DNA from: Enterobacteria phage FrMerlot
Strand: one strand, 5' to 3'
Length of the DNA: 4,222 nucleotides
Sequence record: PP430144.1
In this document: one piece after another, positions 1,340 through 4,216 of the stretch
Layout of the letters: each line of letters begins with the position of its first letter
How positions within the stretch are numbered: the stretch's first letter is position 1
The notes under the pieces: generated by a model
Seen by the model: only the letters and a program-made list of their open reading frames with translations
Told to the model about the DNA's origin: nothing
Databases searched by the model: none
Translations under genes and position numbers: made by a program

Positions 1340-1741
1340 ATGGCAAAATTAGAGACTGTTACTTTAAGTAACATCGGGAAAGATGGAAAACAAACTCTGG
1401 TCCTCAACCCGCGTGGGGTAAATCCCACTAACGGTGTTGCCGCGCTTTCACAAGCGGGTGCAGTTCCTGCGCTGGAGAAGCGTGTTACCGTTTCGGTATC
1501 TCAGCCTTCTCGTAATCGTAAGAACTACAAGGTCCAGGTTAAAATCCAGAACCCGACCGCTTGTACTGCAAACGGTTCTTGTGACCCATCCGTTACTCGC
1601 CAGGCGTATGCTGACGTGACCTTTTCGTTCACGCAGTATAGTACCGATGAGGAACGAGCTTTTGTTCGTACGGAGCTTATCGCTCTGCTCGCTAGTCCTC
1701 TGTTGATCGATGCTATCGATCAACTGAATCCAGCGTATTGA
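1340..1741 (+). CDS. cp: Major coat (capsid) protein
   Basis: ATG at 1340-1342 to TGA at 1739-1741, 133 codons. The translation MAKLETVTLSNIGKDGKQTLVLNPRGVNPTNGVA...IDAIDQLNPAY is a Q-beta-type coat protein. The ORF-track start at 1316 is a TTG that overlaps the A2 stop and is not used here. Confidence 0.95.
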   Translation: MAKLETVTLSNIGKDGKQTLVLNPRGVNPTNGVAALSQAGAVPALEKRVTVSVSQPSRNRKNYKVQVKIQNPTACTANGSCDPSVTRQAYADVTFSFTQYSTDEERAFVRTELIALLASPLLIDAIDQLNPAY

Positions 1742-2338
1742 ACACTGCTCATTGCCGGTGGTGGCTCAGGGTCTAAACCCGATGGTCCGGTTATTATTAC
1801 TCCGGATCCACCGATAGATCCGCCGCCAGGTACAGGTAAGTATGCCTGTCCCTTCGCAATTTGGTCCCTAGAGGAGGTTTACGAGTCTCCTACTAAGAAC
1901 CGACCGTGGCCTATCTATAATGCTGTTGAACTCCAGCCCCGCGAGTTTGATGTTGCCCTTAAAGATCTTTTGGGCAATACAAAATGGCGTGATTGGGATT
2001 CACGGCTTAGTTATACCACGTTCCGCGGTTGCCGTGGCAACGGTTATATTGACCTTGATGCGAGTTATCTTGCTACTGATCAGGCTATGCGTGATCAGAA
2101 GTACGACATTCGCGAAGGCAAGAAACCTGGTGCTTTCGGTAACATTGAGCGATTCATTTATCTTAAGTCGATAAATGCTTATTGCTCTCTTAGCGATATT
2201 GCGGCCTATCACGCCGATGGTGTGATAGTTGGCTTTTGGCGCGATCCATCTAGTGGTGGTGCCATACCGTTTGACTTCACTAAGTTTGATAAGACTAAAT
2301 GTCCCATTCAAGCCGTGATAGTCGTTCCTCGTGCTTAG
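1340..2338 (+). CDS. A1: A1 read-through protein (coat protein plus C-terminal extension; minor capsid protein)
   Basis: I translated 1742-1969 by hand and found no stop; the track ORF 1970-2338 is in the same frame (position mod 3 = 2). Total 332 aa if the UGA is read as a sense codon. The extension (TLLIAGGGSGSKPDGPVIITPDPPIDPPPGTGKY...PIQAVIVVPRA) matches the Q-beta read-through domain. Confidence 0.9.
1739..1741 (+). other. Leaky UGA stop codon of the coat gene (programmed read-through site)
   Basis: The frame stays open for 199 further sense codons after this UGA, ending at TAG-TAA at 2336-2341. In Q-beta this UGA is suppressed at low frequency by host tRNA-Trp to make A1. Confidence 0.85.
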
Positions 2339-2343
2339 TAACT

Positions 2344-2352: not shown

Positions 2353-2372
2353 ATGCATGTCTAAGACAGCAT
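2353..2372 (+). promoter_or_regulatory. Translational operator hairpin (coat-protein binding site) over the replicase initiation codon
   Basis: AUGCAUGUCUAAGACAGCAU folds as an 8-bp stem (2353-2356 and 2358-2361 paired with 2365-2372), a bulged A at 2357 and a 3-nt UAA loop at 2362-2364. The replicase AUG (2357-2359) sits inside the stem. This is the Q-beta-type operator architecture. Confidence 0.8.
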
Positions 2373-4126
2373 CTTCGCATAACTCTCTTAGCGCACAATT
2401 GCGCCGAGCCGCGAACACAAGAATTGAGGTCGAAGGTAACCTCGCACTTTCCATTGCCAACGACTTACTATTGGCTTATGGTCAATCGCCATTTAGCTCT
2501 GAGGCTGAGTGTATTTCATTCAGCCCGAGATTCGACGGGACCCCGGATGACTTTAGGATAAGTTATCTTAAAGCCGAGATCATGTCGAAGTATGACGATT
2601 TCAGCCTAGGTATTAATACCGAAGCTGCTGCCTGGGAAAAGTTCCTAGCAGCAGAGGCTGAATGTGCTTTAACGAACGCTCGTCTCTATAGGCCTGACTA
2701 CAGTGAGGATTTCAATTTCTCACTGGGCGAGTCATGTATTCACATGGCCCGCAGAAAAATAGTCAAGTTAATAGGAGACGCTCCGTCCGTTGAGGGTATG
2801 TTGCGTCACTGCCGTTTCTCTGGTGGTGCCACAACAACGAATAACCGTTCGCACGGTCATCCGTCCTTCAAGTTTGCGCTTCCACAAGCGTGTACGCCTC
2901 GGGCTTTGAAGTATGTTTTAGCTCTTAGAGCTTCTACACACTTCGATATCAGAATTTCTGATATTAGCCCTTTTAATAAAGCAGTTACTGTACCTAAGAA
3001 CAGTAAGACCGATCGCTGTATTGCTATCGAACCTGGTTGGAATATGTTTTTTCAACTAGGCATCGGTGGTATCTTACGTGATCGGTTGCGGTGCTGGGGT
3101 GTCGATCTGAATGATCAGACGATAAATCAGCGTCGCGCTCACGAAGGCTCCGTTACTAATAACTTAGCAACGGTTGATCTCTCAGCGGCAAGCGATTCTA
3201 TATCTCTTGCTCTCTGTGAGCTCTTATTGCCCCCAGGCTGGTTTGAGGTTCTTATGGATCTCAGATCACCTAAAGGGCGGTTGCCTGACGGTAGTGTTGT
3301 TACCTATGAGAAAATATCCTCTATGGGTAACGGATACACATTCGAGCTTGAGTCGCTTATCTTTGCTTCTCTTGCTCGTTCCGTTTGTGAGATACTGAAC
3401 TTAGACTCGTCTGAGGTCACTGTTTACGGAGACGATATTATTTTACCGTCCTGTGCAGTACCTGCCCTTCAGGAAGTTTTTAAGTATGTTGGTTTTACGA
3501 CCAATACTAAAAAGACTTTTTTTGAGGGGCCGTTCAGAGAGTCGTGCGGTAAGCACTACTATTCTGGCGTAGATGTTACTCCCTTTTACATACGTCACCG
3601 TATAGTGACTCCTGCCGATTTAATACTGGTTTTGAATAACCTATATCGGTGGGCCACGATTGATGGCGTATGGGATCCTAGGGCCCATTCCGTGTACCTC
3701 AAGTATCGTAAGTTGTTGCCTAAACAGCTGCAACGTAATACTATACCTGATGGTTACGGTGATGGAGCCCTCGTCGGATCGGTCCTGATCAATCCTTTCG
3801 CGAAAAACCGCGGGTGGATCCGGTACGTACCGGTGATCATAGACCATACAAGGGACCGAGAGCGTGTTGAATCGGGGTCGTATCTTTACGACCTCTTTTC
3901 GCGTTGCTTTTCGGAAAGTAACGATGGGTTGCCTCTAAGGGGTCCGTCGAGTTGCGATTCTGTAGATCTATTTGCTATCGATCAACTTATCTGCAGGAGT
4001 AATCCTACAAAGATAAGCAGATCTACTGGTAAATTCGATATACAGTATATCGCGTGCAGTAGCCGTGTTCTGGCACCCTACGGGGTCTTCCAGGGCACGA
4101 AGGTTACATCTCTACACGAGGTGTAA
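2357..4126 (+). CDS. rep: RNA-dependent RNA polymerase (replicase beta subunit)
   Basis: ATG at 2357 (MSKTASSHNSL...) to TAA at 4124-4126, 589 aa. The catalytic YGDD motif is encoded at 3425-3436 (tac gga gac gat) in frame. The translation is recognisably Q-beta replicase. An in-frame ATG three codons upstream (2348) overlaps the SD and is less likely to be the start. Confidence 0.93.
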   Translation: MSKTASSHNSLSAQLRRAANTRIEVEGNLALSIANDLLLAYGQSPFSSEAECISFSPRFDGTPDDFRISYLKAEIMSKYDDFSLGINTEAAAWEKFLAAEAECALTNARLYRPDYSEDFNFSLGESCIHMARRKIVKLIGDAPSVEGMLRHCRFSGGATTTNNRSHGHPSFKFALPQACTPRALKYVLALRASTHFDIRISDISPFNKAVTVPKNSKTDRCIAIEPGWNMFFQLGIGGILRDRLRCWGVDLNDQTINQRRAHEGSVTNNLATVDLSAASDSISLALCELLLPPGWFEVLMDLRSPKGRLPDGSVVTYEKISSMGNGYTFELESLIFASLARSVCEILNLDSSEVTVYGDDIILPSCAVPALQEVFKYVGFTTNTKKTFFEGPFRESCGKHYYSGVDVTPFYIRHRIVTPADLILVLNNLYRWATIDGVWDPRAHSVYLKYRKLLPKQLQRNTIPDGYGDGALVGSVLINPFAKNRGWIRYVPVIIDHTRDRERVESGSYLYDLFSRCFSESNDGLPLRGPSSCDSVDLFAIDQLICRSNPTKISRSTGKFDIQYIACSSRVLAPYGVFQGTKVTSLHEV

Positions 4127-4133
4127 CCTGGGA

Positions 4134-4152
4134 GGGCGCCAATATGGCGCCT
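4134..4152 (+). other. 3'-UTR hairpin 1 (GGGCGCC / GGCGCCU stem, AAUAU loop)
   Basis: Direct reading: 4134-4140 pairs with 4146-4152, six G-C pairs plus a closing G-U, around a 5-nt loop. Confidence 0.55.
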
Positions 4153-4176
4153 AATTGTGAATAAATTATCACAATT
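4153..4176 (+). other. 3'-UTR hairpin 2 (AAUUGUGA / UCACAAUU stem, 8-nt A/U loop)
   Basis: Direct reading: a perfect 8-bp stem, 4153-4160 with 4169-4176, around loop AUAAAUUA (4161-4168). Confidence 0.55.
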
Positions 4177-4188
4177 ACTCTTATGAGT

Positions 4189-4216
4189 GAGAGAGGGATC
4201 TGCTTTGCCCTCTCTC
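4189..4216 (+). other. 3'-terminal hairpin (GAGAGAGGG / CCCUCUCUC stem, 10-nt loop AUCUGCUUUG)
   Basis: Direct reading: a perfect 9-bp stem, 4189-4197 with 4208-4216, leaving the last six nt (CUCCCA) single-stranded. Confidence 0.6.

Follow-up and report, generated by a model that had tools for sequence, protein, structure and literature searches.

What does the reading frame that continues past a coat-gene stop codon encode, and by which route would ribosomes enter it? The question is raised by positions 1,340 to 2,338 of the window, as the whole stretch of DNA analysed here is called (4,222 nt; Enterobacteria phage FrMerlot, PP430144.1), in which a coat gene ending in UGA is followed in phase by a long frame free of stops. 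The locus is almost certainly the coat/A1 pair of a Qbeta-type ssRNA coliphage (Qubevirus durum), in which A1 is predicted from the sequence to be made by read-through of the coat UGA.

The window has three long ORFs on the plus strand (57-1319, 1340-1741 with continuation to 2338, and 2357-4126). They follow the order A2 (maturation/lysis), coat/A1 and replicase on a plus strand of about 4.2 kb, which is the Qubevirus (Allolevivirus) organization. When the entire window was compared by megablast with 50,697 phage records, 81 records were matched, every one of them Qbeta-type (Qubevirus), and 33 Qbeta-type records are collinear with the window over at least 80% of its length. FrHibiscus (PP430143) and FrBurgundy (PP430142) are the top matches, with 97.0% identity across 99% of the window; the Qbeta strains HL4-9, GIII_C and TW18 and laboratory Qbeta show 94-96% identity, and M11 and MX1 about 75%. 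No identical record was found among the 50,697, and the window therefore represents one more Qubevirus durum strain, whose novelty amounts to a 3% difference from the nearest record in the searched collection. Each annotated relative has a pair of nested CDS in the homologous stretch, one labelled 'coat protein' and the other 'A1 read-through protein', and FrBurgundy has the same CDS coordinates as the window (coat 1340-1741, A1 1340-2338), those of the replicase also being identical.

Several features of the genome outside the coat/A1 gene were recorded. Base 2 of the window aligns to base 7 of full-length Qbeta records, the 5' end (GGGGA...) being short by about 5 nt, whereas nothing is missing from the 3' end (...CCUCCCA). 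In the mechanical ORF list the replicase begins at ATG 2348 (MKCMSKT...), and homology to all annotated relatives places its start at ATG 2357, within the coat-binding operator hairpin AUGCAUGUCUAAGACAGCAU (2353-2372). The A2 gene also terminates in UGA A (1317-1319), with the next in-frame stop, again UGA, five codons on (1335-1337); leakiness at the A2 stop would add 6 residues only. An Rfam scan of the window at E<=1 gave as its only match a sub-threshold one to P24, a Pseudomonas sRNA, in the structured 3' region (3947-4189; 18.9 bits against a gathering score of 100, E = 0.047), which is most likely a chance match.

The coat stop stands in the context CCA GCG UAU UGA ACA CUG CUC, the last coat codon being UAU (1736-1738). 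The open frame after it (1742-2335, 594 nt) is closed directly by TAG (2336-2338) and TAA (2339-2341). An earlier note, made from the sequence alone, had placed a programmed read-through feature at 1739-2338, with the context UAU UGA ACA and the double stop TAG TAA, and all of these are exact in the sequence. The long in-frame extension that it described is present as well, but the extension has 198 sense codons and not 199, the latter number being reached only if the UGA is counted as a Trp codon. The frame is fully open, with no in-frame stop between 1742 and 2335, and the predicted A1 has 332 aa (331 without Met) and a mass of 36.3-36.4 kDa, in agreement with the product of about 36 kDa expected in the note. 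The coordinates of the features are collected in Table 1.

Table 1. Features of the coat/A1 locus of FrMerlot and its surroundings, in positions of the window.
Feature	Position	Strand	Evidence and remarks
Major coat protein CDS, also N-terminal part of A1	1340..1738	+	133 codons including initiator Met; Levi_coat PF01819, 3e-61, full length
Conserved hairpin in the last coat codons	1699..1727	+	RNAalifold helix 1: 12 pairs, 3 compensatory, 94% of cells paired; ends 11 nt upstream of UGA
Coat stop UGA, predicted leaky (read-through site)	1739..1741	+	Sequence; UGA kept by all 16 Qubevirus genomes and all 3 environmental contigs
Predicted A1 read-through extension, 198 sense codons	1742..2335	+	Shuffles, Pfam, PDB, PHROG, dN/dS
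Conserved stem enclosing the linker-coding region	1759..1828	+	RNAalifold helix 4: UGGUGGC 1759-1765 / GCCGCCA 1822-1828
Length-variable part of the linker	1784..1801	+	Protein and DNA alignments
ACGA loop of stem-loop RT4, within the extension	1881..1884	+	Homologous to the Qbeta cryo-EM gRNA model
Tandem terminators UAG UAA closing A1	2336..2341	+	Sequence; 15 nt upstream of the replicase AUG (2357)

From base composition, the probability of 198 open codons is about 5-8e-5. In dinucleotide-preserving shuffles of 1742-2335, frame 0 was free of stops in 0 of 20,000 cases and had on average 9.7 stops, and the remaining five frames of the same segment contain 7, 23, 3, 12 and 19 stops. The extension matches the Pfam Read-through domain PF16814 over residues 20-197 (6.3e-95; cut-off 27 bits). 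In the PDB it matches only the Qbeta A1 read-through domain (3RLC/3RLK; 1.1e-125), to which residues 11-198 align with a handful of substitutions. It corresponds to positions 134-331 of PHROG 7959, 'minor head protein', and coat and extension together to positions 1-331. The extension opens with a flexible Gly/Ser linker (about 1742-1771), which is followed by a Pro-rich segment and then by the globular read-through domain.

For comparison, the coat/A1 region was taken from 15 annotated genomes of both Qubevirus species, which with the window makes 16 sequences. The Q. durum set (n=11) comprised FrHibiscus, FrBurgundy, FrSangria, HL4-9, TW18, BZ1, VK, GIII_C, Qbeta Anc(P1), M11 and MX1, and the Q. 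faecium set (n=4) SP, FI, NL95 and HB-P22. The coat ends in Pro-Ala-Tyr-UGA in all 16 sequences, the extension is 195-199 codons long throughout, and amino-acid conservation runs unbroken across the stop (NPAY-stop-[T/A][L/A]L). At +4, all 12 genogroup III sequences have A and all four genogroup IV sequences have G; A1 is terminated by UAG UAA in 12 of 12 genogroup III sequences and by a single UAA in genogroup IV. A nine-sequence profile drawn from both species has 59 invariant extension columns. Nei-Gojobori dN/dS between the window and ten genogroup III relatives is 0.05-0.36 in the extension and 0.02-0.33 in the coat, and among the ten closest genomes the variable sites of the extension fall on codon positions 1, 2 and 3 in the numbers 21, 13 and 68. 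The purifying dN/dS and the excess of third-position changes indicate that the extension is evolving under coding constraint in the phase of the coat gene.

Scans of IMG/VR and JGI metagenomes with an extension profile added three non-redundant new contigs, all three with the UGA kept; with just three new contigs, the diversity past the 16 isolates is thinly sampled by these scans. The coat UGA is present in a genogroup IV-like metagenomic contig (MAVO01000006.1, 1876-2197), but its extension frame is interrupted at the conserved RCRGNGY motif, 106 codons in, probably by a frameshift introduced in sequencing or assembly.

The extended frame had been taken in the earlier note as the hallmark of a Q-beta-type phage. 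Genome identities of 94-97%, the annotated A1 of the relatives, PF16814, 3RLC/3RLK and the invariant UGA all support that reading, and the locus carries every sequence-testable defining feature of a Qubevirus coat/A1 read-through gene.

The anticodon of tRNA(Trp), CCA, is near-cognate to UGA. Ribosomes starting at AUG 1340 would mostly terminate at UGA 1739-1741 and release the 132-residue major coat protein. On a small share of ribosome passages, Trp-tRNA(Trp) would outcompete release factor 2 at the UGA, a misreading that the A at +4 would favour; Trp would then be inserted and 198 further codons read, up to the UAG UAA at 2336-2341. The junction peptide of A1 would be ...DQLNPAY-W-TLLIAGGGSGSK... 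(NPAY-W-TLLIAGGG), and in A1 the coat domain would be joined through the flexible Gly/Ser linker and a polyproline segment to the globular read-through domain. A few A1 copies would co-assemble into the capsid via their coat domain and would be needed for infectivity. For the Trp residue, the frequency of read-through, the incorporation into virions and the requirement in infection, this account draws on the literature or on inference.

In Qbeta, the low-level reading of UGA as Trp is credited to Weiner and Weber (1971; cited in PMC6526423 and PMC6071253), and the read-through rate has been given as about 5% (PMC6071253) or as 1/15 (PMC8067240). The requirement of A1 for infectious particles is attributed to Hofstetter et al. 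(1974; via PMC13114773) and is also stated in PMC8067240. In these papers, A1 is described as essential and as present in few copies per capsid (PMC6526423, PMC8067240, PMC6071253, PMC13114773). With mutations in the read-through domain, both the burst size and the efficiency of entry change (PMC12469967). How often UGA is read through in Escherichia coli is determined by competition between Trp-tRNATrp:EF-Tu:GTP and RF2 (PMC10570021), and tRNATrp misreads UGA particularly readily when the next base is A (Engelberg-Kulka, 1981, as cited in PMC5289835). The tetranucleotide of the window, UGA A, is exactly this misreading-prone context. Since genogroup IV has UGA G, an A at +4 is not an absolute requirement in the genus, and the context rule explains no more than part of the read-through.

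RNA structure around the site is conserved as well. An RNAalifold consensus was built over 15 genomes, and 93% of the cells of the whole structure are paired, compared with 22-51% in slid controls; the segment 1694-1844 is more stable than its shuffles (MFE z = -3.3). The stem around the linker-coding region begins 17 nt past the UGA and has 7 pairs, of which 4 show compensatory changes between genogroups III and IV, with 96% of cells paired. A weak 4-bp helix brackets the UGA (1732-1735 / 1746-1749) with zero compensatory changes. No stimulatory structure at the canonical spacing of about 8 nt is evident in the RNAalifold consensus, the supported stem beginning at 1759. The flanking helices are regarded as part of the general genome fold.

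A further contact involves the extension itself. In the cryo-EM gRNA model of the Qbeta virion, the ACGA loop of RT4 (1876-1879) kisses UCGU in the replicase gene (2844-2847) (PMC8880383). The two partners are AUGA and UCAU in BZ1, VK and M11, a compensatory pair that supports the cryo-EM kissing contact. In the window, the replicase-gene partner (2849-2852) is UCGC as compared with UCGU, a change from Tyr to His that leaves an A·C mismatch with the ACGA at 1881-1884. The same UCGC change is carried by HL4-9, and it is the U2847C/Y165H change found in an experimentally evolved Qbeta clone (PMC12469967).

Three other explanations of the extension were weighed against read-through. It is very improbable that the extension is a separate protein made by internal initiation after the UGA, or that it is joined to the coat by a frameshift. 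Frameshifting is not needed, the extension being already in the coat frame. Internal initiation could use four in-frame start-type codons (UUG 1970, AUG 2087, GUG 2222 and GUG 2315), but an SD-like sequence at -16 to -4 was found at none of the four. The first 76 extension codons contain no in-frame AUG, GUG or UUG, so only ribosomes that have passed the UGA can translate them, and yet these codons are conserved as protein and lie within the crystallised domain. According to the literature, moreover, A1 and coat share their initiation codon (PMC6526423).

Equally improbable is a UGA recoded by a dedicated mechanism, such as selenocysteine insertion directed by a SECIS-like hairpin, or a host code in which UGA means Trp. 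Conserved RNA structure near the UGA would suit such a mechanism. However, the first helix with covariation support starts 17 nt downstream, and its strands pair over a long range instead of forming a compact hairpin, and no Rfam family was matched near 1739 at E<=1, a result that reaches as far as Rfam's coverage of bacterial SECIS elements. Classical protein chemistry is reported to have found Trp (Weiner and Weber, cited in PMC6526423 and PMC6071253). Against a code in which UGA is Trp stand the nearest relatives, all of which had Escherichia coli, a bacterium with the standard code, as their isolation host, and the A2 gene, which terminates in UGA too (1317-1319). A UGA read entirely as sense would leave no free 14 kDa coat, yet coat is the major capsid component.

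That the frame after the UGA is an untranslated chance ORF, or is open merely through RNA structural constraint, is the least probable explanation and effectively refuted, for although conserved RNA structure does exist there (covarying helices and the kissing-loop contact), no shuffle was open, the frame matches a solved protein domain and PF16814, its dN/dS is low with variation mostly at third positions, and all 16 genomes keep 195-199 open codons although synonymous divergence has reached saturation between the two species. Jointly, the three explanations hold at most a very slight probability, and read-through of the coat UGA, against which no feature of the sequence speaks, is the preferred reading.

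Inside the extension, the +1 frame of the plus strand has a 100-codon stretch without stops (1872-2171, to 2174 with its stop), which includes an ORF of 84 aa from ATG 1920 with a hydrophobic product. The stretch is kept in most Qbeta-proper strains. As a hidden gene it was rejected: it is cut to 54 codons in TW18, and its position is not conserved in M11, MX1, SP, FI and NL95. It is probably a by-product of codon usage or due to chance.

The extension of the window differs in length from that of classical Qbeta. Its linker has three codons more, GGT at 1784-1786 (G) and ATT ACT at 1796-1801 (IT). An extension of 195 codons is found in classical Qbeta, TW18, BZ1, VK, M11 and MX1, one of 196 in HL4-9 and FrSangria, one of 197 in GIII_C, and one of 198 in the window, FrHibiscus and FrBurgundy. 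Identity to the two closest genomes is uneven along the gene. Over 1345-1644, the coat gene shows 100% identity with FrHibiscus and FrBurgundy; in the segment 1645-2094, which holds the N-terminal half of the extension, identity to them falls to 94.7%, lower than anywhere else in the genome; and 1795-2094 is nearest to laboratory Qbeta (96.3%). This profile points either to a mosaic (recombinant) ancestry or to a part of A1 whose evolution is relaxed or diversifying.

Set beside known systems, the locus is closest to Qbeta A1, with which it shares the stop and its full context, the tandem UAG UAA and the 15 nt before the replicase AUG. Apart from the longer linker, it differs from classical Qbeta by the substitutions KYT>KYA, YEP>YES and DAT>DAS and by a genome identity of about 94%. 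FrHibiscus and FrBurgundy are the closest genomes (97%), and their A1 equally has 332 codons, but the extension of the window differs from theirs at 12 nonsynonymous and 10 synonymous sites. Genogroup IV phages SP, FI and NL95 (Qubevirus faecium) have the same NPAY-UGA junction and a homologous extension of 197-199 codons with 41-45% identity; unlike the window, they have G at +4, a single UAA, a different linker and a 3-residue insertion in the domain. Emesvirus (MS2-type) phages share the homologous Levi_coat fold and the gene order, but MS2-type coat genes are without a read-through extension, and A1 has been described as unique to Qubevirus/Allolevivirus (PMC6071253, PMC13114773).

Eukaryotic viruses offer a more distant parallel. 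In read-through of the MuLV gag-pol UAG, with its downstream pseudoknot, and in that of tobamoviruses and alphaviruses, a near-cognate tRNA likewise competes with a release factor, and a product sharing the N-terminus is made at a fixed low ratio, as outlined in PMC13517186. The phage system differs in that the factor is RF2 and not eRF1, in the lack of homology, and in that its supported helix, 17 nt after the UGA, lies farther away than theirs.

The UGA read-through feature itself is already known, and the differences from classical Qbeta are minor. Read-through in Qbeta has been on record since 1971 and serves as a platform for phage display. The value of the present analysis is one of annotation: the window is typed as a Qbeta-type genome, and the boundaries of coat and A1 are fixed for this strain. 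The two conserved helices (1699-1727 and 1759-1765/1822-1828) might in addition tune the frequency of read-through and hence the ratio of A1 to coat, though this is considered unlikely. If they do, the linker indels of 0-3 codons, which lie inside the enclosed loop, would let strains adjust their A1:coat ratio, and RNA structure would then be modulating a read-through signal in a bacterial system.
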